In this document: positions 466 to 52,909 of the stretch, piece after piece
Numbering within the stretch: position 1 is the first letter of the stretch
Layout of the letters: the number at the start of each line of letters is the position of its first letter
Virus record (IMG/VR): IMGVR_UViG_3300049988_000286
Span: 352,001-416,000 of that record
From: a virus
Lineage: Duplodnaviria > Caudoviricetes
DNA length: 64,000 bases
Reading direction: 5' to 3' (one strand)
The notes under the pieces: model-generated
Databases searched by the model: none
What the model saw: the letters and a program-made list of their open reading frames with translations, nothing else
Told to the model about the DNA's origin: nothing
Made by a program: the position numbers and the translations under genes

Positions 466-1017
466 CTAAATCGCTTTGACGAACGATCCATCTGGCACCA
501 CGGCGGAGACGCTCCCCGCATCCTCGCCTTCATTGTCGTAGTAGCATCCCCGATCAGCCGTTCCCATGGCTTTCTGTTTGATCATCCAGCGATTGGCGTG
601 ATCGTCAGTAAGGGGATTATTGGGTTTGTTCTTCATCGCGCCGACGATGTGGTAACCTTGGATCGACGGTCGAGCAGTCAGGGCGACTTGTTCCCGGTTA
701 CTAAAGACGGCGCGCTCAAGGCCGTTCTCGGGCAGGAAATCTTCTACTGGGAGCCGCGCGTTGAACCCAGTGGCCCATCTTCCCAAGCGTTTGAGGGTCT
801 GGCTACCGGCGAGCATGGTCTTGCCATACTCGGAACCACCGTCCCAATCGTGACCATCGGCCCTTACGCCGATGCGTGCTTCGAGGGCTTCCCGTGCCGC
901 GTCCCGTGATCCGAGATGGAGGCCGTAATGGGAGCCGCGAAGATCACCCGATGGTGAGCCATGCCAGAACACGATCGGGACGGAGGCTTCGCAGATGAGG
1001 TCGATGAGGTAGCGCAT
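466..1017 (-). CDS. late gene with internal-protein-like N-terminus and possible ADP-ribosyltransferase-like core
   Basis: Starts MRYLIDLICEA, 4 nt after TAAATA; VFWHGS and LHLGS motifs. Confidence 0.7.
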   Translation of the reverse strand: MRYLIDLICEASVPIVFWHGSPSGDLRGSHYGLHLGSRDAAREALEARIGVRADGHDWDGGSEYGKTMLAGSQTLKRLGRWATGFNARLPVEDFLPENGLERAVFSNREQVALTARPSIQGYHIVGAMKNKPNNPLTDDHANRWMIKQKAMGTADRGCYYDNEGEDAGSVSAVVPDGSFVKAI

Positions 1018-1021
1018 CGGA

Positions 1022-1027
1022 TATTTA
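1022..1027 (-). promoter_or_regulatory. late promoter TAAATA
   Basis: TAAATA-4 nt-ATG(1017). Confidence 0.75.
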
Positions 1028-1031
1028 GCGC

Positions 1032-1060
1032 TTGACCGAACTCTGCTAATCAATTATAGC
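1032..1060 (+). promoter_or_regulatory. sigma70-type early promoter containing CGAACT
   Basis: TTGACC-17 nt-TATAGC. Confidence 0.7.
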
Positions 1061-1083
1061 GGTGGTCGAAACGGAGACACCCC

Positions 1084-1278
1084 ATGCTCGCAGTCAACGA
1101 TCTCGTCCACGCCACCATTATCGAGAACGGCTACTGGAAGGATTCCTGCAAGGGGAAGATCGTCGGCGAGACCGCCAACTTCTGGATTGTCGAGAGCCAT
1201 CACTGGCGCTTCAACAACAAGACCAAGCGTTTCGCCAAGGAGGGCGGCAACCTCTCCAAGCGCGAGCCGAAGGTTTAA
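1084..1278 (+). CDS. hypothetical protein
   Basis: GGAG SD, lies downstream of a promoter. Confidence 0.7.
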   Translation: MLAVNDLVHATIIENGYWKDSCKGKIVGETANFWIVESHHWRFNNKTKRFAKEGGNLSKREPKV

Positions 1279-1490
1279 CCCCTCCACGCCAGCCAATACA
1301 TCAGTGCGTCGGCTTCATCGCGAAACACTATTCTCCCCTCCGACACATGGACGAGCGACGAAGTATTGTCCGCGCACCATGCTATCGCCGCCCGCGCCTC
1401 TTGCGACCATCTACCGAAGGGGTGATCGACCTCGATCACCCACTCCTTGACGAGGGTCCGATACATCCGGGCAGCGCGAGGCGGGGTCAT
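1275..1490 (-). CDS. paralog family A small protein
   Basis: C-terminal IVFRDEADALMYWLAW. Confidence 0.7.
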   Translation of the reverse strand: MTPPRAARMYRTLVKEWVIEVDHPFGRWSQEARAAIAWCADNTSSLVHVSEGRIVFRDEADALMYWLAWRG

Positions 1491-1530
1491 GCGGGTTCGT
1501 TAGATCACGCGAGGTCGAGAAAGCAAATAG

Positions 1531-2721
1531 CTATTTCTTGATGCGCGTGAGGAACAGTTCCTCCCTCCATCCCTCGCGGGGCTCTCCTTGCTTCAAGGTC
1601 ACCTGATCGACAGGAACAAGAACCCACGAATCCGGTAGGTCCATCTTGCGCGCAGTCGAGACGCCTTCGATGCCCTTGTCCTCGAAGAAACCGGTCCACG
1701 AGAGGATTGACGATCGTGCGTTACCCTCGTTGGCGTATTTCTTCGCGGACTTGAACGTATCGACCATGCGGACATGATCCTTCCGATCCGTGTAGTCATA
1801 GTCGAACCCGGCGAAATACTTCCCGTCCTCGCCGTCGCGAAGGACATAGACGATCGACTCCGGTATCGAGATTGCCTCAACGGCATCCTCGATCTGTCGA
1901 TAAGAAAGAGTGAAGCCGTTCTGCCACCAAGGATTTTCGCCCCAATACTCCCACGAGGGAACACCCCTGCCACCCGATGAACCATCCGGACGCGTGTGCT
2001 TGATGTGATACTCGATCTGGCTCTCATCGAGATCGACGCGGATGGCGCGGCCGGAGTCCTTTTGCCGGTCCGCGCTGGTCTTCTTGTCCGACGATACAGT
2101 GAATTCGAGACCCGCCGGTACCGTGAAGATCGGCATCTCATGCGCGTGCTCATACGGGTTGTCGTAATTGTATGGCTTTCCCGCCGCGCGCCAAGCATCC
2201 GCCTCCGCGACGAGGCGATGATCACGCTCTGGATAGACCCACGCAGTAATGGTCACCGGCCGGGTAAAGCGCCAGCGCGAGCCCTTGACCATCTCCTTCA
2301 GCTTGGAAACCTTGGCCTCCTTTGCTACTGGCGGGTCGATCTTGGTTACGGCCCCGATGTGGGCAACCGATGATCCCCAGACGACGAACCGCAAGTCGCC
2401 GCCGAAGCGATCGATGACCCGCTGTTCAGCCGCCGCCGCTTCTGGGAACCGTTTTTTGATCGCACTCCATTGCCCATCGAACAGGCGGTAGCTCTCACCC
2501 CATGTCTTCCAAAGGTCATGCCCGGCGAGTTCTCGCAGCACCACATGCTCTTCTTCCGGGATGAGGTCTTCAAGCGAATGCGGTCTCGTGATCTGCGTGA
2601 CGCGCCCCTTTGTGGCGCGCTTCGAAGGCTGGCAGAACCGTTCCGAGAGCACAAACCCCGCCGAATAGATGGGGGTGCCCTTGGGTGCGCTCACGTAGTC
2701 GCCAATTTTGATATCGCTCAT
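1531..2721 (-). CDS. hypothetical protein
   Basis: Long ORF starting MSDIKIG, TTGACC promoter upstream. Confidence 0.8.
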   Translation of the reverse strand: MSDIKIGDYVSAPKGTPIYSAGFVLSERFCQPSKRATKGRVTQITRPHSLEDLIPEEEHVVLRELAGHDLWKTWGESYRLFDGQWSAIKKRFPEAAAAEQRVIDRFGGDLRFVVWGSSVAHIGAVTKIDPPVAKEAKVSKLKEMVKGSRWRFTRPVTITAWVYPERDHRLVAEADAWRAAGKPYNYDNPYEHAHEMPIFTVPAGLEFTVSSDKKTSADRQKDSGRAIRVDLDESQIEYHIKHTRPDGSSGGRGVPSWEYWGENPWWQNGFTLSYRQIEDAVEAISIPESIVYVLRDGEDGKYFAGFDYDYTDRKDHVRMVDTFKSAKKYANEGNARSSILSWTGFFEDKGIEGVSTARKMDLPDSWVLVPVDQVTLKQGEPREGWREELFLTRIKK

Positions 2722-2820
2722 GCCTAGATGGTAGCCTTCAACTCGCAAGCGGTCAACGGTTTATAGTTCGTGCTTGACTCACCCGTGATAATCGATTACC
2801 GACGCGGCGAGGAGATCACT

Positions 2821-3534
2821 ATGCCCCTGCCTGAAATCGAGCATTCGCCCCATGGCTACTGGATCGATCTCGACCGATCGATCCACCCGCTCGCAGAGCC
2901 GCAGTCTCACGCCCGGCATCCGATCCTCGATCGTTTCTCCGGCGAGGGCCTTGCCCGAATGCAAGCCGGGCTGGACGAGGGTCTCGTCGCGGTATCGATC
3001 TTCGACAACAGCTTCTCGGTTCGATCGCGCGCAGGGGCGGTTCCCGCACCCGTCATCGCTTCTCTTGCCAGAGTCGTCGCGCTTCACACGCCCGAGGCGA
3101 TCACTACGGATCATCACGGCGCTGGTCCCACCAAGACGATCATGCGCGGTCTTCGGTTGACGACTACTCGCACGGTTCCATCGTTCCCCGACAGTGAGCC
3201 GCAGTTCGCATCGCCGTGGGAGGAGATCGCGCATCTCAAGCTCGCTCTCTCCGTGGTGGAAGGTGAACGTGACGCCTATTCCGCCATGGCGTCACAGAGT
3301 GAGGCCCAGACGGCGCTCAAGCATTTCTTCAAGCGCTTCGACGACATCAGAGCGCAGCTTGACCTTGTTCGCCGTTACTACAAGAAGGGCGAGGATATCT
3401 CAATCGACTCATCGCTCGACGATAAGGCGAAGCTGGACAAGCTTGGCTTCTACATCTTCCATGAGATGAACCGTAGCCTGTGGTACGTGGGTGTGCTCGT
3501 CAAGGAGTTGTTCGCGACCAAGGCCGACGACTGA
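2821..3534 (+). CDS. hypothetical protein
   Basis: GAGGAG SD before ATG 2821. Confidence 0.75.
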   Translation: MPLPEIEHSPHGYWIDLDRSIHPLAEPQSHARHPILDRFSGEGLARMQAGLDEGLVAVSIFDNSFSVRSRAGAVPAPVIASLARVVALHTPEAITTDHHGAGPTKTIMRGLRLTTTRTVPSFPDSEPQFASPWEEIAHLKLALSVVEGERDAYSAMASQSEAQTALKHFFKRFDDIRAQLDLVRRYYKKGEDISIDSSLDDKAKLDKLGFYIFHEMNRSLWYVGVLVKELFATKADD

Positions 3535-4113
3535 TCACTCCCCTCCCGTTTCAACAACCCTCGCCTGTGCCGCCATCGTTTTGGACACGATCACCTCGTC
3601 GTCGTTACCACCGTCGAGGTAGAGGAGGATGTCGCGGAGCGGCAGGGTGAGTTCAACGATCCACCACGCTCCCTTGCGTTTCGGGAGGACATAACCGCGT
3701 GTCGCATGGGTGCCATCGTAGGTGGTGAAGGTCGCGCAACGATCCCGCCGGGCGGTGAACGATACCCAGTCGCGGTTCTGGCGGTCGATGTGCTGGGGGT
3801 CGTACACGCCTCCGCCGCCGCGCCAAAGCTTGATCGGTGTATCGAGGGCAGCTTCGAACATCTCCGGAGTGGCGAAGGGTGTGGCCCAATTCTGGACTTT
3901 CATGATTTCGTTTGCGAAGAAGACGATCCGGGATGAGGTCTGGAACTTGCGGTTCCTCGATGCCCGGTTGATGCACGTCACGGCGTTGCGGTTGATCCAT
4001 GGCAGCACGGCGTCGTGGAAGCGTAAGCGGGCTTCTTCCGCCTTGTAGTGATTGAGCAAATCCCAGATCGAGAGAAGGTCTTGGTCTTCGCAGAGGTTGA
4101 TCCACTCACGCAT
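3535..4113 (-). CDS. late gene with internal-protein-like N-terminus, R-S-E type ADP-ribosyltransferase-like
   Basis: MREWINLCED start; LWRG, WVSFT and DDEVIV motifs in ART order. Confidence 0.65.
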   Translation of the reverse strand: MREWINLCEDQDLLSIWDLLNHYKAEEARLRFHDAVLPWINRNAVTCINRASRNRKFQTSSRIVFFANEIMKVQNWATPFATPEMFEAALDTPIKLWRGGGGVYDPQHIDRQNRDWVSFTARRDRCATFTTYDGTHATRGYVLPKRKGAWWIVELTLPLRDILLYLDGGNDDEVIVSKTMAAQARVVETGGE

Positions 4114-4543
4114 GTTCGTCCCTCACGAAAATCCTCGATCTGTCTGCCTTAATCGCCAACATGCCGATGCGCTTCAATCCCGCGAAACGATCGGCGAGAC
4201 TTTCGAGGTGATCCCCGATCCCCATCACGAAGCATCCGCACCCTGCTGCATAGATGGTAGCGGCGCAAGTCCAGTCGGTTTCTTGTTCGATACCGGAGAT
4301 CGACGTGCCGATGATCATCGGGTAGCCGAGGTTGCCGAGATCACGGTGCGGGGCATCATCGGCGTTCCAGACTAGCAGATCATCAGAGTAGCCGCCCCGG
4401 AGCGTCTGATGCGGTGCTGCCTTGAGGGCGCGCATGATCTCTCTCGCAGAGGGGTTGCGGTAGAGCATGATTTCGCGACCCTTACTGATGGGGAAGACTT
4501 CCCGCTTCTCCATGAGGGCGATGGTATCGATGAGGTCTCGCAT
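4106..4543 (-). CDS. late gene with internal-protein-like N-terminus
   Basis: MRDLIDTIALME start; middle gene of a TAAATA-driven triplet. Confidence 0.75.
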   Translation of the reverse strand: MRDLIDTIALMEKREVFPISKGREIMLYRNPSAREIMRALKAAPHQTLRGGYSDDLLVWNADDAPHRDLGNLGYPMIIGTSISGIEQETDWTCAATIYAAGCGCFVMGIGDHLESLADRFAGLKRIGMLAIKADRSRIFVRDEHA

Positions 4544-4544
4544 A

Positions 4545-4982
4545 TTAGGCAAATTTCACGCGAAATTGTGTTGTATCATCGTCTTCGAAGTCGCCGAATG
4601 TGACTTGCCCATTATATTGTGCCGCGAGCTTCTTTGCTAGTTTCTCGTAGACGGACGCTCTGGCGGTATTGTCATGCCTCGGTGTGGTGAAATATATCTC
4701 CTTCGGAGAGAACTTATCGTGTAAGTCTTTGACGATGGTGATCACCGTAGCGAACACCGCAAACGGAGTTGCTTCATTAGTCGGTTTGAGGGAGAACTTG
4801 GTGCCCCCTACCATATTTCCAAATTGGATATCCCATACTTTGTTATGCGCGCGAGCGACGAAGGCGTATGGTTTATTCTTGATCTCGAATTTGGCCAAAG
4901 CGTATTCGTGATCGATGTCCTCCCAACGCCATACCTGCTGTGAATCAAAGGCTTCTCTGATGATGTTGATTAGGTCTCGCAT
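4545..4982 (-). CDS. late gene with internal-protein-like N-terminus, possibly GNAT-like; paralog of 14203-14748
   Basis: MRDLINIIREA 4 nt after TAAATA; FATVITIV and RASVYEKL motifs. Confidence 0.75.
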   Translation of the reverse strand: MRDLINIIREAFDSQQVWRWEDIDHEYALAKFEIKNKPYAFVARAHNKVWDIQFGNMVGGTKFSLKPTNEATPFAVFATVITIVKDLHDKFSPKEIYFTTPRHDNTARASVYEKLAKKLAAQYNGQVTFGDFEDDDTTQFRVKFA

Positions 4983-4986
4983 TGCG

Positions 4987-4992
4987 TATTTA
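4987..4992 (-). promoter_or_regulatory. late promoter TAAATA
   Basis: TAAATA-4 nt-ATG(4982). Confidence 0.75.
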
Positions 4993-5030
4993 GGCTTGCG
5001 AACCAGACTTGGACGAACTATAGCAGAGCG

Positions 5031-5255
5031 ATGGACCGCCGCAAATCTGCCCGCCTCTACTCCGCCTCCGCCCACGCTATCATGCGCGAGCGCGCCGAAG
5101 TGGCTCGAAAACGTGCAGAAATTTGGGGCGATCATCTCCCGCAGCACCTCGCCGTTGAGCGTCGTGAGACTTTCCTTCGCTGGCTTTGGATCGCTGTGTT
5201 GGTCGGGTGTCTGGTGCTCGGTGTGGGCTTCCTCGTTACCCAGACGGTGCAGTGA
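5031..5255 (+). CDS. small membrane protein, probably leaderless
   Basis: C-terminal hydrophobic helix; TTGCGA-17 nt-TATAGC ends 6 nt before the ATG. Confidence 0.65.
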   Translation: MDRRKSARLYSASAHAIMRERAEVARKRAEIWGDHLPQHLAVERRETFLRWLWIAVLVGCLVLGVGFLVTQTVQ

Positions 5256-5470
5256 TGGGCAAGCTTTCGCGCCATGATCTTCTCCGCCGCGAGTTGGAGA
5301 GTCGGCATTTCACCAAGGCGTCGCACCCCGATCGTGAGACCCTTGATGCAATGTGGAGTCATGCCGTCGATCACAACGGCGAAGCGTGGGACTGGAATAC
5401 GCAGGAGAAGCCGGGGATCACCACCGCATACGCTTTCCTCGTCTCGCTGCTCAAGCATCCGGTGCCATGA
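5255..5470 (+). CDS. hypothetical protein
   Basis: TGATG coupling to the upstream gene. Confidence 0.65.
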   Translation: MGKLSRHDLLRRELESRHFTKASHPDRETLDAMWSHAVDHNGEAWDWNTQEKPGITTAYAFLVSLLKHPVP

Positions 5471-5521
5471 GGTGTTGACAGTTCGGTAAATCAAACCCAT
5501 GGAGCGGAAAGGAGAACAATC

Positions 5522-5848
5522 ATGGACCTTTTTCGTATCGCGGCCCAGCGCGGCATCACGCTCCCGACCGCGAAGGTCGTCCCGCAGAAAAGAGCGACGA
5601 GTCAGCCAATCACCCGCAATCAGCCTGTAGAGGTTCGACTGCTGGTTCGCGGCGATCTACCGGTCCAATACACGCGAGCCGGCAAAGTGGCCAAGCGACA
5701 GCCAGCGCCGATGCTACCCGGTGAAACGGCTTGGGCGAAGCTGCGCTATACCGGTGAGGTGAACCTGTATCCATTCGAGATGGCGGGCGAGGGCTATGAA
5801 CTTGTCTCCGACGCCGAAGAGGGCGTGCATTACGAGTTCGTCGAATGA
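5522..5848 (+). CDS. hypothetical protein
   Basis: AAGGAG SD; TTGACA promoter at 5475. Confidence 0.75.
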   Translation: MDLFRIAAQRGITLPTAKVVPQKRATSQPITRNQPVEVRLLVRGDLPVQYTRAGKVAKRQPAPMLPGETAWAKLRYTGEVNLYPFEMAGEGYELVSDAEEGVHYEFVE

Positions 5849-6063
5849 AGACGCGTATCCTCTGTATCCTCACTATCACGGGCTTCTTCTGCTTCGCTTC
5901 AGCGCTCCTGATGACCCTCGTGCTCGACATGAGGAACTTCTTCGACGCCCTTCCTGCCGCGCGCCTCTATGTCTTAATGGTGGAGGGTGCGCTATTCTCC
6001 GCCACAATGACCAGTGCCTTCGCGGCTCGCTGGTATGTCTTGCGCTGGCGGTGCGATCTGTGA
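5845..6063 (+). CDS. small membrane protein
   Basis: ATGA overlap; two hydrophobic segments. Confidence 0.65.
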   Translation: MKTRILCILTITGFFCFASALLMTLVLDMRNFFDALPAARLYVLMVEGALFSATMTSAFAARWYVLRWRCDL

Positions 6064-6377
6064 AGAAAACCGTTTTGCGCATACAAGCGAAAGGCGGTCG
6101 AGCGCCCGTGGTGGCGATGATGGAGGCGATGATCCGGGCGGGCATCCCCTTCGTCATGGCGAACAGCGTCTCGCATCCCGGATCACGCGCTACCTTGCGC
6201 GATTGGGGCGAGAACTCCGACCTCCTCTTCGCTCTTGTTCGTGACAGTGATGTGGCGATGATCAGATTGATCAACACGGAATGCACGATCAGAGATAATA
6301 ATCACGTGTGGTGGAGCTACGCGTCGCGGCCGAAGACCGAATCGGACCGGCCCGCCATACGCTTGCGGCCTTGGTGA
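6060..6377 (+). CDS. paralog family B protein
   Basis: GTGA overlap; RAGIPF and LVRDSDVAMIRL motifs. Confidence 0.65.
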   Translation: MKKTVLRIQAKGGRAPVVAMMEAMIRAGIPFVMANSVSHPGSRATLRDWGENSDLLFALVRDSDVAMIRLINTECTIRDNNHVWWSYASRPKTESDRPAIRLRPW

Positions 6378-6381
6378 CGAC

Positions 6382-6387
6382 TAAATA
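6382..6387 (+). promoter_or_regulatory. late promoter TAAATA with SD-containing leader
   Basis: 21 nt to ATG 6409, AAGGAG in the leader. Confidence 0.7.
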
Positions 6388-6408
6388 GGGGAAAGGAGAC
6401 CTCCCCTC

Positions 6409-6903
6409 ATGCGCACCTACATCGACATCATCAACGAAGCACAGGAGCAACTCAACGAGTTGTTCGGCCTCTCCTCGAAGGAGAAGGCTGCGAAAAGCTT
6501 GGCTGCGACGGGTGACGAGATCAAGGCAGCTATGCAGATCAGACACACGATCGAGAGCGCGAAAGCCGTTGATGCTCTCGCAGTCAAGGCGCTGGGTCAA
6601 GGCGCTGATGCTGCGTTCTTCCAGAAGCTGGGTTTCGAATCGCGGATCAATCCACAGGAAGCACAGGGCACCTTCTATGTCCCCGATGTGTGGACCGATA
6701 TGAAGTCGGTGCATGAGTTCCAGACCGTCTACGGCGTTGAGCGCCTCGCTGGTCCGGTGAGTCAGCAGAACAAGATCGACGAATTCTCGATCGAGCGTCG
6801 CTACCCGGATCGCACCAACAAATGGGTGCCTCGTCGTGCATTTCAGGCGTGGATCAGCCGAGCGGACGGCAATCACGAGAAGCTGATCTTCCGCCTCAAA
6901 TAA
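6409..6903 (+). CDS. late gene with internal-protein-like N-terminus
   Basis: MRTYIDIINEA start. Confidence 0.8.
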   Translation: MRTYIDIINEAQEQLNELFGLSSKEKAAKSLAATGDEIKAAMQIRHTIESAKAVDALAVKALGQGADAAFFQKLGFESRINPQEAQGTFYVPDVWTDMKSVHEFQTVYGVERLAGPVSQQNKIDEFSIERRYPDRTNKWVPRRAFQAWISRADGNHEKLIFRLK

Positions 6904-6961
6904 AGAGTTCGTGCTTGACCCCTGCCGCTAATCGTTTATACACGCGGTTCAGGAGACGATC

Positions 6962-7492
6962 ATGACCCGCACTTACATCGGCCATTACAAGCGCTTCGGT
7001 CAGCCCAACCACCACATGGCGGTCTATCGTCTCGAAGATGGCCGCACGGTCAATGATCAGAATGTTGAGATCAGCCTCGACAAGCGCGTTCTGGTCAGCG
7101 GTCCCGAAGATGGCGGTGAGGTTTGCGGTTGCGCGTTGTGTCAGCGTAAGGCTCGCCTCGCTCCGCCCAAGGGTTTCGACGGTTGCACGTGCACCGAGTT
7201 CACCCTCCATTTCCATCTCTGCCAGTGCGGCGTGCGCCAGCGTGTCCTCGAAGCCGAGGCGGAAGCCATCGTCCCGATGCTATCGGACGAGCAAGTCTCC
7301 GCGATGGTTGAGGTCACTGGCGCGATCGAGCAGCGCAAGGCAGACAATCTCGGCTACGGCTTGAAGAAACTTCAGTTAAGCACGGGATGGTCGCGTAGCG
7401 GAGACAATGCGGTTATCTTGACCGATCTGGGTAAAATTGTTCAGGACCGGTTGCGCAAACATCTCGAAGTAGTCAAAGTCCTCTCGACGTAA
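6962..7492 (+). CDS. hypothetical Cys-rich protein, possibly zinc-binding
   Basis: AGGAG SD; CGCALC, CTC and CQC motifs. Confidence 0.7.
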   Translation: MTRTYIGHYKRFGQPNHHMAVYRLEDGRTVNDQNVEISLDKRVLVSGPEDGGEVCGCALCQRKARLAPPKGFDGCTCTEFTLHFHLCQCGVRQRVLEAEAEAIVPMLSDEQVSAMVEVTGAIEQRKADNLGYGLKKLQLSTGWSRSGDNAVILTDLGKIVQDRLRKHLEVVKVLST

Positions 7493-7609
7493 TCTTATAA
7501 TCTTTATTGTCCCTTGGTTGGAATGTTGCTATAGTTCGGCAACATTCCTGTCATGATTGACAGCGCGGATGATCGCGCTACCATCGTGGCACTATATAGG
7601 GAGTCAATC

Positions 7610-7738
7610 ATGAGCGACCTTCTCGCAGCCCTCCTCTTCCTCATGGGCCTTGGTCCCAATCCCGATCTTCCGCCCGATCCTGCGGTTCACACGTTGGGTG
7701 GTGGTATCCCGACGACGCCCCCGACGCGCGTGGACTAA
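7610..7738 (+). CDS. 42-aa peptide with hydrophobic N-terminus and Pro/Gly-rich tail
   Basis: GGAG SD; MSDLLAALLFLMGLG...GGGIPTTPPTRVD. Confidence 0.6.
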   Translation: MSDLLAALLFLMGLGPNPDLPPDPAVHTLGGGIPTTPPTRVD

Positions 7739-7740
7739 AG

Positions 7741-8232
7741 ATGCCGGTTGAGATACTCCTCTACGGAGTCTTGTGCTCGATCTCGGCACTGTGTGGCATC
7801 CCGGCTTTGATGAACCGTGATGATGGCGTCTACGCTCTTGTTGGCGGGATGATCATGTCGCTGTTCTGGTGCGCGAATGCCATGTTGTGGATGAGCAATG
7901 GCGTAGAGTTGTTCGCATTCGTCGATGGTGGTTTCTTTGTCGCTACGGTGATCCTGTGGTGGTTCACGCGACTACGTTGGGTGGGTTTACTCGCGCTGCT
8001 CTTCTTGGGCAACCTTGGCCTTGATGCTCTTTTCCTCAAGGCGTTCGGTATCAATGTCGGTATGACCTATCCGTGGTTCTCGCGAGCCTCCAACCTGTTG
8101 TTCATCAGTGAACTCGCCACGGTGGCTTGGGTAGGGTGGTCGCAGATGCAAGCAAGGATGAAGATCGCTACAGCGACGCTCGGTGGCACGATCACGGTCG
8201 CGCTGGGGTTGATCTCTTTCGGTATCTTCTAA
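7741..8232 (+). CDS. multi-pass membrane protein
   Basis: About 5-6 hydrophobic segments; begins 2 nt after the peptide gene. Confidence 0.75.
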   Translation: MPVEILLYGVLCSISALCGIPALMNRDDGVYALVGGMIMSLFWCANAMLWMSNGVELFAFVDGGFFVATVILWWFTRLRWVGLLALLFLGNLGLDALFLKAFGINVGMTYPWFSRASNLLFISELATVAWVGWSQMQARMKIATATLGGTITVALGLISFGIF

Positions 8233-8288
8233 AGAGGTGTTGACAGTTCGCTGATAATCGATTAGAGGTCGGTCCAAGGAGAAAACTG

Positions 8289-9215
8289 ATGCCCAAGGCC
8301 ACCTTCACGATCGACAACCCCCTCAACGCGAACCCGCCCGAGAGCAAGGTATGGTTCCACGTCACCGTGACGGACGGTCGGGTGACGGCGGTCGAGGAGC
8401 ACACCGGCTACGCGGGTGGCCCGATCACTGGAACGCTGGAGACGTTGAGCGAGCGTGTCGCTGCTCGCGGCGGCAGTCAGGATGCCCTTGCCGCGTTCCT
8501 GATGTCGCTCGGTGTCATGGGCACGGTGGATCGTTCGGGCTCGATGAGCAAGGAGATGCTGCGGGCGATCTCCGATGAGGTCAAAGGCATCATGGCCAAC
8601 ACCGACGCGCTCGATATGCTCGACTTCCAGATCGATGGCGTGCTCGTCCGCGAGACGAACCTCGACCAGTTCCTGACCGAAGTCGCGCTGCGGGACTGGC
8701 GTCGGCGAGTGGTTCAGGTTTGGGCCACGATCTCGGGCAAGCAGAACGAGTTCGATGACGATCGCCTCGACATGCTCGATCAACTCGACGATCTCATCGG
8801 CGAACGTATCACGGCTATGCGCCAAGCGGCGGAGGCCCGCATGATGTCGATCGCCCCGCGCCGTCTCGACATGGTGGTGGTGCAGCAGAACGATGACCGC
8901 GACGCGGTGATGAACTGGTCGATGGGCGGCATGAAGGTTTCGGAGATCGAGGGTTGCCTCGATGCATTCGAGCGCGCGGAGCAGATGACCTCGTTCGAAT
9001 TCGACGCCTACGAGACGTTTGGTCAGGCGGCGTGCAACGCGGAGGGCATCGAGACCCTGCACGATCTGTTCGGCACGCGCTTCGCCGAGGCGTTCTTCCT
9101 GCGCAAGAAGTTCCTCATCCTCGACGCAGATCGTCGTGATGCTGTCGTGGAAGTCGCGTTGGCGCAATTGCGCCTCGACCGCATCGAGGCAAAGATCACG
9201 GAGTTGATGGCATGA
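8289..9215 (+). CDS. hypothetical protein
   Basis: AAGGAG SD, strong GC3 bias, TTGACA promoter at 8240. Confidence 0.85.
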   Translation: MPKATFTIDNPLNANPPESKVWFHVTVTDGRVTAVEEHTGYAGGPITGTLETLSERVAARGGSQDALAAFLMSLGVMGTVDRSGSMSKEMLRAISDEVKGIMANTDALDMLDFQIDGVLVRETNLDQFLTEVALRDWRRRVVQVWATISGKQNEFDDDRLDMLDQLDDLIGERITAMRQAAEARMMSIAPRRLDMVVVQQNDDRDAVMNWSMGGMKVSEIEGCLDAFERAEQMTSFEFDAYETFGQAACNAEGIETLHDLFGTRFAEAFFLRKKFLILDADRRDAVVEVALAQLRLDRIEAKITELMA

Positions 9216-27710: not shown

Positions 27711-27964
27711 TGTCGGTCCTAGTTCACGTTAACCGATCCCACATAGCGATGAACGCCAAGGATGGCGGCAATCGACCCGTCTATACTGTGAAGATGAAGG
27801 GGCGCACGCGTTACGCGCGTGAGGTGATCATCCATGGTCCTTCTCGGATGGTCTACGATGGCACGCAATTGAGTTGCGGGGCACGGGCTTGGTTGATCAG
27901 TGATGCAGAGGTCACGCTCGTGGATGAAATGTCTTTCCAAGAGGCCAGACTTGCCGTAGAGTAG
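27710..27964 (+). CDS. conserved phage hypothetical protein
   Basis: VHVNRSHI...GPSRMVY...LSCGARAW. Confidence 0.75.
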   Translation: MSVLVHVNRSHIAMNAKDGGNRPVYTVKMKGRTRYAREVIIHGPSRMVYDGTQLSCGARAWLISDAEVTLVDEMSFQEARLAVE

Positions 27965-27981
27965 TGGGGAAAGGTTCTCTG

Positions 27982-30717
27982 ATGGTTGATTATCGCCCCA
28001 CCGTGACTGTTCCGAAGACGCCGCTGCCCACGAAGGCGCGGATCGCCGATGAGCCTCGTCAGGTCGAGGCGTGGGCGGGTCTCCATGATCGCCTCGCTGC
28101 GAAGAACGAGGGTCGCCCAACTTACCTCCTCCACGACGGCCCCCCGTACGCGAACGGCAACATCCACATGGGGCACGCGCTCAACAAGGTGCTCAAGGAC
28201 GTGATCTGCCGGGGGCAGCGCGCTCTCGGCTTCGATGCTCGTCTGCACGCGGGGTGGGACTGTCGTGGTCTTCCAATCGAGTGGAAGGTCGAAGAGGATT
28301 GGCGCAAGCAGAAGCGTGACAAGAATGCCGAGCCGGAAGCATTTCGGCAGGATTGCCGCGACTATGCGGCACGGTGGGTGGATGTCCAGAAGGAGCAGTT
28401 CAAGCGGCTGGGGATCGTCGCCGACTGGGAGTCCGCGCCCTACGGTCATGGTTACCGCACGATGTCGCCCGAGATGTCGAGCCTGATCGTTTACCGCTTT
28501 CACCGCATGGTGGAGCGCGGCGATGTGTATTCGGCCAAGAAGCCGGTGTTGTGGAGTCATGTCGAGCGCACCGCTATGGCGGAGGCGGAGACCGTGGATC
28601 GCGAGCATCAGGTCGAACAGGCGTGGGTGACCTTCCGGATGTTCGCAGGGCCGCTCAAGGGCGACGATCTCCTTGTCTGGACCACCACGCCTTGGAGCCT
28701 TCCGAGCAATGTCGCGGTCGCGTACAACCCTGACATCGCCTACGGGCTTTACGAACAGCGCGGACGCCGGTTCGTGGTTGCCGACAGTTGTGTGGAACGC
28801 GCGCTGCAAAATGATTATCAGCGCCTCCGCGACATCGATCCGAAGACGGACTTCCCGCGCCATGCAGAGCATCCCCTGAACGATCTCGGCTACCCGGTTG
28901 GTGAGGACTGCGTGTCGCGGATCATGCCGGCATCCTTCGTCCGCGACAGTGCGGGAACGGGTCTTGTCCATGTCGCCCCCAGTCATTCCCGTGATGACTG
29001 GGAGGCTTGGAAGGCGCTCGATCACACGTTGACCTTCCCGACGACGATCAACGAGGATGGGCGCTACCACGACAGCCTTCCGCTGTTCGGCGGCACGGCG
29101 GTGGTCAAGGGCAAACGCCTCGGTCCCGCGAACGAGATGGTGCTCGATGCCATGGCGGAGCGTGGTACGCTCTACCGGCGCGAGACTGCTCCCCTGACCT
29201 TGCAGCACTCTTGGCGCAGCGACGCGGTTCTCCTCACGCTCGCCACTGATCAGTGGTTCATCCGCGTCACCGGGGAGGGCGGCGTGGTTGAACGTGTGCT
29301 TGCGGGATTGGCGGAGGTTGAGTTCTCCCCATCCAGCGGCGGCACGCGCATGGCCTCGATGCTGCGCGATCGTCCCGATTGGCTGGTGTCTCGTCAGCGC
29401 CTGTGGGGCACCCCCATGGCCATCTTGGCGCATCGTCGCACCGGCGAGCCCTGCCGTGATCCGGCCGTCTTGGGAGCGATCCATCAAGAGTTGATGGATC
29501 GTGGGGCGGATGCGTGGTGGAGCGAGTTCTCGGTTGAGGACATGTTCGCAGCGATCGGTCGCCCCGACGAGGCCAAGGACTGGCGGCGCGTCGATGACGT
29601 GCTCGATGTCTGGTTCGATTCTGCGTGTGTGCACGCCATCACTGGTGAGCGTGCCGATCTTGTCGTCGAGGGGAGTGATCAGAGCCGTGGCTGGTTCCAG
29701 AGCAGCGCTCTCGAAGGCATGGCCAACGATGGCGTGCTCCCGTACCGGGAAGTGCTCACCCACGGTTTCGTCCTTGACGGATCGGGGCGCAAGATGTCGA
29801 AGTCGGAGGGGAACGTCATTGATCCCATGACGGTGGTAGATCGTCTTGGCGCGGATGCGGTTCGTGTCTGGGTAGCTGCCACCGACGTTCGCGAAGACCT
29901 TCGTGTCAGTGATGCGGTGTTAGCCACCCATGCCGAGACGGTTCGCAAGGTCCGTATCACGCTTCGCTACCTCGTCGCGGCGCTGGCGGGTGTTACCGTT
30001 ACGCACGATCGGGTGATCGTCGATCCCCTCAACCGCTATGTGCTCAATCGTGTCGCGCATACCAGTGACGCGTTGTTCGCCATGCTGGCGGAGAAGGACT
30101 TCACCCGCTACGTGGCGACGATCGCGAATTTCTGCGCCAATGATCTCTCCGCCCTGCTGTTCGATGCCCGCAAGGACATCCTCTACTGCGACGGGCCGAG
30201 TGCGCGACGGGATGATTATCTCGCAACGCTCTCGGAGGTGTTTGAGCATCTGGTTCGCTGGGCGGCTCCCGTGATGGTTTTCGCGGCGGAGGAGATGTGG
30301 CAAGCCCTCCATCCAGAATCGAGCGTGCACGAGCAAGACTGGCTCCATCCCCACTGGTTGTGGAACGACGAGCGGTTGATGGAACGGTGGGCGAAGGTGC
30401 TCGATTATCGCTCGGAGATGTTGGGCAAGATTGAGGAAGTGCGTGCGGCGGGTGCGGTGAAGTCTAGCCTTGAATGCCATCTCACTGTCTTCGCCGATCC
30501 AGCGGCACGCCAGCACATGCTTGGGATCGATATGGCGGAACTCACCCTCACGGCTGGGGTGGATATCCGCTCCTTGGAGGGGCGCTTTACCGCACCGACC
30601 AACACTGTGGTGGAGCGTGTCACCACGCCGCGCTGTGACCGGTGCTGGCGGCACGTCGAGGTCGAGGCTGTCGAGGACTCGCATCTCTGTGATCGGTGCG
30701 CGGAGGTTGTGGCGTGA
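27982..30717 (+). CDS. ileS: isoleucyl-tRNA synthetase, type 1
   Basis: PYANGNIHMGH, WTTTPW and GTGLVH editing motifs, SRQR, KMSKS, C-terminal CDRC..CDRC zinc finger. Confidence 0.95.
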   Translation: MVDYRPTVTVPKTPLPTKARIADEPRQVEAWAGLHDRLAAKNEGRPTYLLHDGPPYANGNIHMGHALNKVLKDVICRGQRALGFDARLHAGWDCRGLPIEWKVEEDWRKQKRDKNAEPEAFRQDCRDYAARWVDVQKEQFKRLGIVADWESAPYGHGYRTMSPEMSSLIVYRFHRMVERGDVYSAKKPVLWSHVERTAMAEAETVDREHQVEQAWVTFRMFAGPLKGDDLLVWTTTPWSLPSNVAVAYNPDIAYGLYEQRGRRFVVADSCVERALQNDYQRLRDIDPKTDFPRHAEHPLNDLGYPVGEDCVSRIMPASFVRDSAGTGLVHVAPSHSRDDWEAWKALDHTLTFPTTINEDGRYHDSLPLFGGTAVVKGKRLGPANEMVLDAMAERGTLYRRETAPLTLQHSWRSDAVLLTLATDQWFIRVTGEGGVVERVLAGLAEVEFSPSSGGTRMASMLRDRPDWLVSRQRLWGTPMAILAHRRTGEPCRDPAVLGAIHQELMDRGADAWWSEFSVEDMFAAIGRPDEAKDWRRVDDVLDVWFDSACVHAITGERADLVVEGSDQSRGWFQSSALEGMANDGVLPYREVLTHGFVLDGSGRKMSKSEGNVIDPMTVVDRLGADAVRVWVAATDVREDLRVSDAVLATHAETVRKVRITLRYLVAALAGVTVTHDRVIVDPLNRYVLNRVAHTSDALFAMLAEKDFTRYVATIANFCANDLSALLFDARKDILYCDGPSARRDDYLATLSEVFEHLVRWAAPVMVFAAEEMWQALHPESSVHEQDWLHPHWLWNDERLMERWAKVLDYRSEMLGKIEEVRAAGAVKSSLECHLTVFADPAARQHMLGIDMAELTLTAGVDIRSLEGRFTAPTNTVVERVTTPRCDRCWRHVEVEAVEDSHLCDRCAEVVA

Positions 30718-41054: not shown

Positions 41055-41149
41055 TGGTACGCCCGGAGGGATTCGAACCCCCAACCGTTCCGCGATCTGC
41101 GGATCATGAGGTATAAGCTCACCGCTCTAACCAATTGAGCTACGGGCGC
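41055..41149 (-). tRNA. tRNA-Ile(UAU) with a long variable region (95 nt)
   Basis: GCGCCCG/CGGGCGT acceptor, canonical D-arm, GTGAG-CTTATAC-CTCAT anticodon arm, 23-nt variable region, TTCGAAT T-loop, CCA. Confidence 0.85.
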
Positions 41150-49305: not shown

Positions 49306-49803
49306 CTATTTGTCAAGGTTTTTCCGGCGGTGCCAATGCTCCTCCATGTGGCAAGTTGGACAAAGGAATTCGAGGTTTGCCATTTCATCAGAACCACCCT
49401 TCGATCGCTCTACAATGTGGTGAACCTGAACAATCTCCGGAATCTTCTCATAGGAACAACGTTCGCATCGTTCCGCACCTTTGAACTCAATCAGCCTAGA
49501 CCTTATTGAGGCGTGTTTTACAACGGCGCTCTTCAGGGGTTTACCTGTCTGTTTATAGTTTATACCGGCACGATGTTTGTTTGAACAGCGTTTGGAGCAG
49601 GTGACACGACTAGCCGCCCCCATGAAGGTCTCTTGGCACACAGGGCAGAGTTTTGGCTTTGAACAGTGTTGTCCAAAGCACGCTCGACTACAGAATACAC
49701 CCACTTTGTCGGTGCCCATACGAGATGGTCGGCGATAAATCGCTTTGCTGCAAACAGAACATTCCGTGTTTGGTGGCGATATGTAACCGGGCTTACTAGG
49801 CAT
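49306..49803 (-). CDS. HNH homing endonuclease
   Basis: CERC...VHHI...GG...NL..LCPTCH plus N-terminal CxxC/CSxxC repeats. Confidence 0.85.
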   Translation of the reverse strand: MPSKPGYISPPNTECSVCSKAIYRRPSRMGTDKVGVFCSRACFGQHCSKPKLCPVCQETFMGAASRVTCSKRCSNKHRAGINYKQTGKPLKSAVVKHASIRSRLIEFKGAERCERCSYEKIPEIVQVHHIVERSKGGSDEMANLEFLCPTCHMEEHWHRRKNLDK

Positions 49804-49851
49804 ACTCTGCAAGGTATGCTAATTTCGCCCGGCAGAGCGATATTAAAATGA

Positions 49852-49954: not shown

Positions 49955-50305
49955 CTATGCCATATTCGGCAAGTTAGGCGCAATCGGGCACCGCGATATC
50001 CTTACCAGAAAGTATCGCGCAGCCACCAAAGCTTTGAGCCGAACCTTGATCGGGACATCCGTCTTCTTGGCGACGCGGAGGCATCGAGCCACGAAATGAA
50101 TATCGGCGATATGTTGGCGACGACGCTTGTCCGCTGCATCGCCGCGATAACTCTTGTCATACTCGCAGTCATGCTTGAAGCACGCTTTGTCGAGTTCATC
50201 GATGGGAGCGCCGCCGCAATTACCCGGCCCGCAATAGTTGCCATGGAAGCGGATGAAGCGCTTCGTTGGTGCTAATGGGGCTTCGAACAGATGGCGGCTG
50301 CGCAT
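49955..50305 (-). CDS. phospholipase A2-like late protein with internal-protein-like N-terminus
   Basis: MRSRHLFEA start; YCGPGN Ca-loop, DKACFKHDCEY (HD) and ADIHF motifs. Confidence 0.8.
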   Translation of the reverse strand: MRSRHLFEAPLAPTKRFIRFHGNYCGPGNCGGAPIDELDKACFKHDCEYDKSYRGDAADKRRRQHIADIHFVARCLRVAKKTDVPIKVRLKALVAARYFLVRISRCPIAPNLPNMA

Positions 50306-50413: not shown

Positions 50414-50590
50414 TTACATTTCGTATAGGACTACCGTCCAATCTCGATCATCGAAGTGGTAGCGGCGGTAGTGGACTTGTCCGAAGAGTCCATCGATCCC
50501 GTCGATGTAATCACCGCTATTGGGAACGGTGGGCATGTCGCGCTCACCAAGTATGCGATTGTCGGCATCGCGGAAGATGACGCGGTTCAA
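50414..50590 (-). CDS. 58-aa protein coupled to rpsU (not in the supplied ORF track)
   Basis: TTG start overlaps the rpsU TGA; MNRVIFRDADNRILG... Confidence 0.55.
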   Translation of the reverse strand: MNRVIFRDADNRILGERDMPTVPNSGDYIDGIDGLFGQVHYRRYHFDDRDWTVVLYEM

Positions 50591-50787
50591 CGATCGCGTT
50601 CCGCTCGCTGACGATCGGCTTTCCTCGATCGCTTGACCGCAGCGGCGCGAGCCTTGGCCTTAACTTCGCTGGGCTTCATGTAGTGGGCGCGCTGTTTCAT
50701 TTCACGCAGGATGCCCTCGCGCTGCATCTTGCGCTTCAAGACCTTCAAGGCCTTGTCCATATTCCCGTCCTGAACCGCTACCCGCAT
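50587..50787 (-). CDS. rpsU: ribosomal protein bS21
   Basis: DKALKVLKRKMQREGILREMKQRAHYMKPSE matches alphaproteobacterial bS21; AAGGA SD. Confidence 0.9.
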   Translation of the reverse strand: MRVAVQDGNMDKALKVLKRKMQREGILREMKQRAHYMKPSEVKAKARAAAVKRSRKADRQRAERDR

Positions 50788-50844: not shown

Positions 50845-50920
50845 TGGAGCCCGAGGTCGGGATTGAACCGACGACCTGTCCCTTACGAGGGGACTGCAAC
50901 TACCACTGTGCTACTCGGGC
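50845..50920 (-). tRNA. tRNA-Thr(CGU)
   Basis: GTCCC-CTCGTAA-GGGAC anticodon arm, TTCAAT T-loop, CCA. Confidence 0.9.
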
Positions 50921-50969: not shown

Positions 50970-51045
50970 TGGCAGGAGCGCCGAGACTCGAACTCGGAAC
51001 CTACGGGATTGGAAGCCGGTGCTCTACCAATTGAGCTACACTCCT
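50970..51045 (-). tRNA. tRNA-Trp(CCA)
   Basis: A1-U72 and G73 identity elements, TTCCAAT loop; anticodon stem has only 3 pairs. Confidence 0.75.
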
Positions 51046-51052
51046 ACAGTCA

Positions 51053-51126
51053 TGGTTGGCACGGGTGGTAATGCTCCACCGTCTCGGCTTTATCAGAACC
51101 TTGCTCTACTTTTGAGCTACGCGCCA
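51053..51126 (-). tRNA. tRNA-Ile(GAU), atypical elbow
   Basis: CTGATAA loop, T-loop AGCATTA, D-loop AAAAGTA, CCA. Confidence 0.8.
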
Positions 51127-51156: not shown

Positions 51157-51232
51157 TGGTGGTGACGGCTGGGCTCGAACCAGCGACATACGCGTCATCA
51201 ACACGTCGTTCTTCCAACTGAACTACGCCACC
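51157..51232 (-). tRNA. tRNA-Ile(GAU) with G37
   Basis: ACGTG-TTGATGA-CGCGT anticodon arm, canonical D and T arms, CCA. Confidence 0.85.
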
Positions 51233-51237
51233 ACATT

Positions 51238-51525
51238 GAGCGTCGCCCGAGACTCATCGACGATGTGCGCACCGCTCCCGTGGGATGTGCGATCTCGTCG
51301 GGTCGTACGTCGGGCGACGACTCCAAACTATCAATCCGGGGAAGCTGCTTCCAAGCGCGTGCTTCATGTCAAAGAGCCCCTGTGGAGGGCGCTTCGGCAG
51401 ATGTTGCTTGGAGAAGGGGACTTCAGGTGTCCCGAACCTCAACCAATACCCGCCTAGAACGGGTATGGCAAACCACCCCGCTCACCCGAAGGTGATCGAC
51501 CAACTAATCGTGGTTGAGGAGGTTG
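51238..51525 (-). ncRNA. candidate multi-domain structured RNA at the head of the tRNA operon
   Basis: Three nested inverted-repeat domains and a cUUCGg tetraloop on the minus strand; no credible ORF. Confidence 0.55.
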
Positions 51526-51540
51526 TCGTGTTCATGCTTT

Positions 51541-51572
51541 TATTTATACCGAAGGGGTCGCCGGGCTGTCAA
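51541..51572 (-). promoter_or_regulatory. overlapping sigma70 (TTGACA...TATAAA) and T4-type late (TATAAATA) promoter
   Basis: TTGACA at 51572-51567; TATAAATA at 51548-51541. Confidence 0.75.
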
Positions 51573-51586: not shown

Positions 51587-52909
51587 ATGGCTAGAAAAAT
51601 CACCGACCTTCCGCAGTCTACCCTTTCGGCGACCGATCTCGGTGCTGCCTCCATCCCCGTTTCCAATGTGGGCAGCAACGCCTCGGTGCTGGAACGCGTG
51701 TTGGCGCGCGACTTCATGTCGTTGCTCGGTGGGAGCTATCGCGGCACGTGGAGCGCGTCGCCTTCGCGGCCGTATAACTTCGGCGACATCGTGACTGTCC
51801 TCTCAATCATCACTCCAATCTACTATGTCTGCCTTATCGCGGGCACTACCTCCAATCCCTCTGCGAACACGGGCTGGCAACTGATCAATTCCGTGGTGCG
51901 TGGTACCGATGCTGGACCACCTACAGTCGGGGTAGATGGCCAATTGATCATTCAGGATGGCTTGCTGTATTTCAATAGCAACGGCGCGCGTATTCCGCTG
52001 CTTCGTGGCGACGCCCCGCTATTGTCGAACCAGATCGCGCGTGAGCCGGGGACGATCAACATTCTGGATGATCCAACCTTCGCCAGTGGAAGCACATGGA
52101 CGGTGGTGGGTTTCAATCGGGTGGCGTCAACTAATGACTTCGGTAACGGTTTTGCCTATCAGACTAGCGGCACGGGCAGTTTCAGCCTCAAGTCGAAAAT
52201 GACCATCCCTTACACAAGCGGAGAGCAACAGTACGTACGTTATTTTATAACGAAGACCGCTGATTTCGCGGGTACGATCTCGCTCACGTACATAAAGGCT
52301 AATAAAGACGGCAGCAATGCATCAGCGCAGACGGCTGCCACGATCAACCCGACAACGCTTAATACTTTTAGCTTCGGGCTAGATACTAACTTTTCCAACT
52401 TTGGAAGTGGTAACATTACTGCTTTCGGTGTAGAGGCGACGGTTACGGCAGGATCGATCACCGTATTGAGGCTAGAATATTACAAACCTCTAAATCTCCG
52501 GTATCTACCTACGACGACATCCACGTCGGTGTTCTACTACGGTAACAGCACTTTGCTTACGCCACCGGACACGCTGATCAACGCCAGTAAACCCACTGAT
52601 ATGGGTAGTCTTTCTGGCAACATCACGCTCAACTTCTATGCCTATCGAAGTGCAAATTTCACGCTCACTGGCAACAGCACATTGGTCAATCCATCTGGCG
52701 TCGCGTTCTCCGGTTTCGGTGGACGCATCCGCATTACTCAAGACCCTGCTAACTCTGGCGCGCCTTACACTCTAGCCTATGGGTCGGCGTGGAAGTTTCC
52801 CGGCGGCGCGCCGACGCTCTCTACGACACCGGGGGCGGTTGATCTCTTGGTCTATTTCGTCAACACCGACCTGACCTTTGAGTGCACGCTCGTCAAGGAT
52901 GTGAAGTAA
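51587..52909 (+). CDS. tail fibre / receptor-binding-type structural protein
   Basis: ARKITDLP N-terminus; C-terminal FTLTGNSTLVNP...ITQD...WKFPGG.PTLSTTPGAVDLL module. Confidence 0.75.
   Translation: MARKITDLPQSTLSATDLGAASIPVSNVGSNASVLERVLARDFMSLLGGSYRGTWSASPSRPYNFGDIVTVLSIITPIYYVCLIAGTTSNPSANTGWQLINSVVRGTDAGPPTVGVDGQLIIQDGLLYFNSNGARIPLLRGDAPLLSNQIAREPGTINILDDPTFASGSTWTVVGFNRVASTNDFGNGFAYQTSGTGSFSLKSKMTIPYTSGEQQYVRYFITKTADFAGTISLTYIKANKDGSNASAQTAATINPTTLNTFSFGLDTNFSNFGSGNITAFGVEATVTAGSITVLRLEYYKPLNLRYLPTTTSTSVFYYGNSTLLTPPDTLINASKPTDMGSLSGNITLNFYAYRSANFTLTGNSTLVNPSGVAFSGFGGRIRITQDPANSGAPYTLAYGSAWKFPGGAPTLSTTPGAVDLLVYFVNTDLTFECTLVKDVK

Follow-up and report, generated by a model that had tools for sequence, protein, structure and literature searches.

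The A at position 37, with its t6A modification, ranks among the best-conserved features of tRNAs that decode ANN codons, and in bacteria it aids the recognition of tRNA-Ile by isoleucyl-tRNA synthetase (IleRS). What, then, should be made of a phage tRNA-Ile(GAU) gene in which position 37 is G? An intact natural tRNA-Ile without A37, in a phage that bears its own IleRS, is a test case for whether t6A is dispensable for charging and decoding, and the same gene is a test case for whether phages evade HepS and other defences that cut tRNAs by altering the bases flanking the anticodon. We judge that the gene encodes a working tRNA-Ile isodecoder without a t6A site, and we suggest, at a probability of roughly 40%, that G37 has been retained since it frees the tRNA from an activity directed at U36-t6A37.

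The gene comes from a single 499,572-bp IMG/VR virus record, that of a T4-like phage with 57% GC and a CheckV completeness of 100%. ARAGORN finds 41 tRNAs and a tmRNA in this genome, and nine of those tRNAs lie in the window, by which we mean the whole stretch of 64,000 nucleotides that was analysed; positions are those of the window unless given as genome positions (Table 1). The tmRNA (genome 15556-15913) and two tRNAs with the amber-reading anticodon CUA, with A33 and C33 (genome 102238-102314 and 106351-106425), lie outside the window.

Table 1. Features of the window that bear on the G37 tRNA gene.
Feature	Position	Strand	Basis
Promoter-like element, TTGACA (51572-51567), 18-nt spacer and TATAAA (51548-51543), with leader ORF	51482..51572	minus	read by eye
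Leader ORF, 18 codons, MNTTTSSTTISWSITFG, rich in Thr, Ser, Ile and Trp codons, contains ATT and ATC	51535-51482	minus	read directly
tRNA-Ile(GAU), G37, CCA encoded	51157..51232	minus	ARAGORN; Rfam RF00005, 62.4 bits; read directly; cloverleaf is the minimum-free-energy fold
Second tRNA(GAU), loop CUGAUAA (A37), C4-G69, A73, CCA	51053..51126	minus	Rfam RF00005, 45.5 bits; fold z -3.2
tRNA-Trp(CCA)-like, weak 3-bp anticodon stem	50970..51045	minus	ARAGORN, Infernal; ~80% identity to phage tRNA-Trp genes
tRNA-Thr(CGU), A37, same operon as the G37 tRNA	50845..50920	minus	ARAGORN, Infernal
Gene for ribosomal protein bS21, located downstream of all four tRNAs	50587..50787	minus	PF01165, 65 bits
Phospholipase-A2-like ORF, inside the tRNA region	49955-50305	minus	PF08398, 31 bits
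HNH endonuclease ORF, inside the tRNA region	49306-49812	minus	
tRNA-Ile(UAU), A37, long extra arm	41055-41149		
IleRS, bacterial type	27964..30717	plus	TIGR00392, 624 bits; tRNA-synt_1, Anticodon_1 and C-terminal zf-FPG_IleRS

Read directly, the anticodon loop of the G37 tRNA is UUGAUGA, seven nucleotides that place U32 and U33 before the anticodon (G34 at 51199, A35 at 51198, U36 at 51197) and G37 (51196, a C on the plus strand) and A38 behind it. The gene thus has the anticodon, the 7-nt loop and the U33 of a tRNA-Ile(GAU), and at 51196 it has G in place of the A37 that serves as t6A site and IleRS determinant. The remainder is regular throughout, with a 7-bp acceptor stem that includes one G-U pair, U8 and A14, a D stem GUUC/GAAC with G18 and G19 in its arm, a 5-bp anticodon stem ACGUG/CGCGU, a variable loop of 5 nt, a T arm GCUGG-UUCGAGC-CCAGC, A73 and an encoded CCA. 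The Infernal match covers positions 1-71 of the 71 in the RF00005 model (E 7.8e-12), well above the gathering score of 29 bits that sets membership of the family, and scores highest of all tRNAs in the 13 kb searched. The initial annotation had described a UU-GAU-GA loop on an otherwise textbook cloverleaf, and the ARAGORN call, the RF00005 score and the direct reading all confirm this. In the predicted fold U32-A38 and U33-G37 pair, leaving the three anticodon bases as the loop; an unmodified A37 version of the tRNA would close its loop likewise in the thermodynamic fold.

A single-base deviation at a nearly invariant site is also what one would expect of a dead gene, or of an assembly or sequencing error. 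We consider such an explanation very unlikely, since the cloverleaf is intact and high-scoring, the same variant occurs in unrelated phages (see below), and two assemblies agree: the Logan assembly of run SRR35533295, which possibly derives from the same source sample, has 100% identity to the locus across 7,852 bp that include base 51196, making an error at that base unlikely. The comparison with related phage genomes that the initial annotation had proposed yielded no orthologue of the locus in IMG/VR, either with the neighbouring proteins and the IleRS as queries or with the exact tRNA pattern; a lineage-specific tRNA pattern had 0 matches in genome contigs and, in metagenome contigs, retrieved two unrelated A37 arrays and no orthologue. 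Homologues of the bS21 protein (55-72% identity) adjoin other tRNAs rather than an orthologue of the G37 gene, and the sole hint of a host comes from P0002, a protein fragment of 72% identity on a 1.1-kb contig binned in an Oxalobacteraceae MAG.

Descent points to isoleucine. With the anticodon loop masked, the body of the G37 tRNA was compared, ungapped, with a collection of 2,164 different class I tRNAs, and phage tRNA-Ile(GAU) made up 16 of the 30 nearest vs 277 of the whole collection (p ~1e-7), at 67-74% identity and with a T arm the same as that of locus L232. A tRNA of other identity with a switched anticodon, for which a roseophage tRNA-Asn matching at 82% might speak, was rejected because the body is nearest Ile(GAU) and carries A73. 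Judged from the masked-body neighbours, A73 and U12-A23, isoleucine appears to be the only reasonable identity. The G37 tRNA shares with canonical bacterial and phage tRNA-Ile(GAU) the anticodon, A38, A73, U12-A23, the class I size and its nearest body, and departs from them at position 37, where G stands for A and the t6A site is lost. Two stem pairs differ as well from those of E. coli tRNA-Ile, whose identity set is reportedly that of Nureki et al. 1994: G4-C69 stands in place of C4-G69, and G29-C41 in place of C29-G41.

The consequence for modification follows directly, since A37 and U36 are strict determinants of t6A (PMC4615747) and bacterial TsaBD requires 36-UAA-38 (PMC13276492); because its position 37 is G, the phage tRNA cannot receive t6A37. 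Recognition by bacterial-type IleRS depends strongly on t6A37 (PMC9976931), and three premises of the initial annotation are borne out, namely that t6A37 needs A37, that A37 matters for recognition by IleRS, and that G37 removes the modification site. Formation of m1G37 by a phage enzyme was also considered.

It is ruled out by the lack of a TrmD or Trm5 gene in the phage genome, and bacterial TrmD needs G36, so that the G37 of the phage tRNA is probably unmodified. Neither RtcB nor t6A machinery (TsaC) is encoded by the phage, which does encode an Rnl1-type RNA ligase. The same substitution is known from human mitochondrial tRNA-Ile, where m.4295A>G (A37G) is pathogenic and the resulting G37 is methylated by TRMT5 (PMC7826259); the phage has no such enzyme of its own.

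If bacterial-type IleRS relies on t6A37, how would a G37 tRNA be charged? The IleRS gene of the phage lies about 20 kb from the G37 tRNA in the same genome, and the initial annotation had proposed that the tRNA needs this synthetase. One could go further and suppose that the phage IleRS has evolved to prefer the t6A-less G37 tRNA-Ile, the two forming an orthogonal pair with a private supply of Ile-tRNA, for which both the proximity of the genes and the importance of t6A37 to enzymes of this type would argue. We regard this as a long shot: the phage enzyme has an ordinary bacterial architecture, both the tRNA-Ile(UAU) and the second GAU tRNA of the same phage retain A37, and IleRS was found in none of five huge-phage or fragment records searched. 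A 340-kb, 99%-complete phage (L016), whose 59 tRNAs include a single GAU tRNA, one with G37, has no match to PF00133, in a search that matched 14 of 14 control genomes. A G37 tRNA thus does not, as a general rule, require a synthetase from the phage, and only the part of the earlier proposal that concerns the presence of an IleRS in this phage stands.

How often such genes occur was examined with a pattern consisting of GTAGYTCA, a D-loop, GARC, six bases, YTGAT, the test base, and GTTCRA at T-loop distance. In IMG/VR it gave nine matches with G37, all called Ile(GAU) by ARAGORN and spread over a GC range of 25-63%; after merging of loci that are 99-100% identical (L009/L010 and L012/L013/L017), these represent six lineages other than the present one, each known from 99-100% identical contigs alone. 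Three matches had a pyrimidine at position 37, and two of these three loci also contain a canonical GAU copy. At least 118 had A37, and their total is estimated at about 2,000 (range 700-9,000) from the sub-pattern CTGATAT, which has 48 matches, 3 of them among the 118 listed. G37 thus accounts for about 0.5% (~1 in 200) of the phage GAU genes that fit the pattern. Among 185,579 prokaryote species, taken as one genome each, the pattern found G37 14 times, at least six of these in accessory arrays of 7-18 tRNA genes, and an A37 GAU copy is present elsewhere in all five of the genomes checked, including the array hosts L141, L144, L147 and L151. In the decaying genome of Candidatus Phlomobacter fragariae (a MAG), two rRNA-operon copies of tRNA-Ile(GAU) carry G37 and a further stem change (L145 and L146), and the third copy is canonical. 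G37 in GAU tRNAs is real, recurrent and rare; so rare a state is not a strategy that phages generally apply to their GAU tRNAs, which limits the claim.

Nor does the GAU class stand out among its relatives. In phage tRNAs that had played no part in selecting the loci, A37 is nearly invariant in ANN decoders, with G37 in 0 of 118 tRNA-Thr, 0 of 56 tRNA-Ser-GCU, 0 of 85 tRNA-Arg-YCU, 1 of 126 tRNA-Asn, 4 of 170 tRNA-Lys, 2 of 178 CAU tRNAs and 5 of 37 tRNA-Ile(UAU), and the rate of G37 in GAU tRNAs is no higher than that of non-A37 in the other phage ANN decoders, Ile(UAU) excepted. The excess over G at 37 in other ANN decoders for tRNA-Ile(UAU) has a Fisher p of 7e-4 (loci L040, L065, L085, L091 and L276), and two of these genes (L065 and L276) have a long extra arm, as does the tRNA-Ile(UAU) of the phage itself. 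The excess of G over pyrimidines at position 37 could come from transition bias.

These frequencies suit a simpler account, which is that a single A-to-G transition was fixed in one of two redundant GAU genes and tolerated, G37 having no function of its own. The tRNA would then work somewhat worse, or matter little, and its A37 neighbour and the host tRNA-Ile would carry the load. We take this to be quite possible, if short of probable. The variant is one base off the canonical sequence and rare (~0.5%), within the non-A37 background of other ANN decoders; a GAU tRNA with A37 is adjacent; a canonical GAU copy accompanies two of the three pyrimidine-37 genes, just as one canonical copy accompanies the two rRNA-operon G37 genes of Ca. 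Phlomobacter fragariae; and the phage deviates at position 37 in other families, with A37 in Pro-GGG, U37 in Pro-CGG and A37 in Leu-CAG. Against such drift stand the lack of any other accumulated defect in the G37 gene, its place at the head of its operon, the very unusual elbow of the supposedly good A37 copy, and the 340-kb phage whose sole GAU tRNA has G37. Furthermore, non-A37 variants are found together in certain genomes and not scattered: one phage (L015) has G37 in its Ile, Met and Lys tRNAs, and the 340-kb phage has G37 in Ile along with Thr and Asn copies bearing U37 beside copies with A37.

In that 340-kb phage a sub-array at about 116-121 kb (L157-L174) contains U37 in Thr-GGU, Asn-GUU and Asp-GUC and G37 in Ile-GAU, as well as two 8-nt loops and loops with C33 or G33, and canonical Thr and Asn copies lie outside the sub-array. 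In the present genome, all 11 other U36 tRNAs in the ARAGORN set have A37. The departures from the usual position-37 rules that lie outside the window (genome 350697-351435, 26072-26144 and 443601-443674) comprise the three proline and leucine tRNAs named above, for which bacteria have G37, and one of the two His-GUG copies, which has G37. Across phage loci, A37 was seen in 20 of 93 Pro-UGG tRNAs and G37 in 52 of 92 Phe-GAA tRNAs.

The setting of the gene bears on whether it is likely to be used. The G37 tRNA heads a tRNA operon on the minus strand, in which the promoter-like element is followed by the 18-codon ORF, a leader of about 250 nt, the G37 tRNA, the second GAU tRNA, the Trp-like and Thr(CGU) tRNAs, and bS21. 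A simple consensus promoter scan listed nothing here, as it demands a T at the end of the -10 hexamer and so missed TATAAA. A gene for a protein of 440 aa (51587-52909) neighbours the operon. The second GAU tRNA, 30 nt downstream of the first, is not called by ARAGORN and has an odd elbow, with a T-loop AGCAUUA and a D-loop AAAAGUA that lacks GG. The Trp-like tRNA can be read in two registers, one (ARAGORN) with an 8-nt loop and a four-base anticodon UCCA, the other (Infernal) with a 7-nt loop that holds CCA and is closed by a C-C mismatch, which leaves three stem pairs. In 179 long ORFs of the phage, isoleucine is encoded by ATC at 43 per 1000 codons, by ATT at 9.7 and by ATA at 3.3; the codon served by a GAU tRNA is thus in heavy use.

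The reading that we prefer is that the gene would be expressed as a phage tRNA-Ile(GAU) isodecoder that reads AUC and AUU without t6A37, a working copy that would neither depend on the U36-t6A37 of host tRNA-Ile nor be recognised through it. Such a tRNA would maintain the supply of Ile-tRNA when an activity directed at the anticodon loop disables ordinary tRNA-Ile, and this activity might be a HepS-like host nuclease or one made by the phage. Charging would fall to IleRS, probably including the enzyme of the phage itself, and the adjacent GAU gene, which keeps A37 and has a remodelled elbow, would be another copy altered in its own way. We count in favor of retention under selection the intact gene (score, stems, elbow bases and CCA), its first place in the operon, the high demand for ATC, its Ile ancestry, the recurrence in six lineages, the accessory arrays, its role as sole copy in the 340-kb phage, the clustering of non-A37 decoders, and the RNA ligase. 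Counted against it are the rarity of G37, its background-level rate, the possible transition bias, A37 in all other ANN decoders, the redundant A37 copy 30 nt off, the t6A37-reliant bacterial type of the IleRS, and the harm done by mitochondrial A37G (PMC7826259).

A second unusual class of tRNA-Ile came to light in a control scan. Matches lacking U33 had been meant as a noise baseline for position 37 and proved unusable for it, since at least 111 phage tRNA-Ile(GAU) genes turned out to have C33 in place of the universal U33 (IMG/VR loci L225-L344, e.g. L273, L274 and L280). Their loops are CCGAUAA in at least 89 and UCGAUAA in at least 20, and apart from C33 their cloverleaves are normal and carry CCA; about 4% of other phage tRNAs have C33 too, and no description of phage tRNA-Ile with C33 was found in the literature searched. 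It is tempting to see G37, the C33 of these more than 100 other phages and the remodelled elbows as so many disguises that hide Ile decoders from defence nucleases directed at the anticodon loop, with a co-evolved IleRS in the present phage charging the t6A-less tRNA and completing a natural orthogonal pair, an idea that we hold to be improbable as a whole.

The closest parallels to our preferred reading, in which G37 would shield the tRNA, come from tRNA-cutting systems. Van den Berg et al. 2023 (PMC10264068) predicted that substitutions in the anticodon loop let phage tRNAs withstand the anticodon nucleases of the host, and the G37 tRNA resembles such tRNAs in that the anticodon is kept, a flanking loop base is changed, and the phage is rich in tRNAs and encodes an RNA ligase. 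It differs from them in that their substitutions fall on the sites at which known nucleases of the host (VapC, PrrC and colicins) cut, and that study mentions neither Ile nor position 37. Toxins that cut tRNA-Ile do exist, among them CdiA toxins (PMC9424206, PMC11724271) and HepS, a prophage-encoded HEPN anticodon nuclease that cuts tRNA-Thr, tRNA-Ile(GAU) and tRNA-Ser(GCU) (PMC13043305). The proposal in the initial annotation that G37 is a nuclease-escape variant gains plausibility from HepS and loses some through the rarity of G37 and the adjacent A37 copy. HepS is a Salmonella system, and no dependence on position 37 is reported in the text of PMC13043305 that was consulted. The three types of tRNA given there as targets of HepS are the very types that the operon led by the G37 tRNA and the cluster downstream of it supply.
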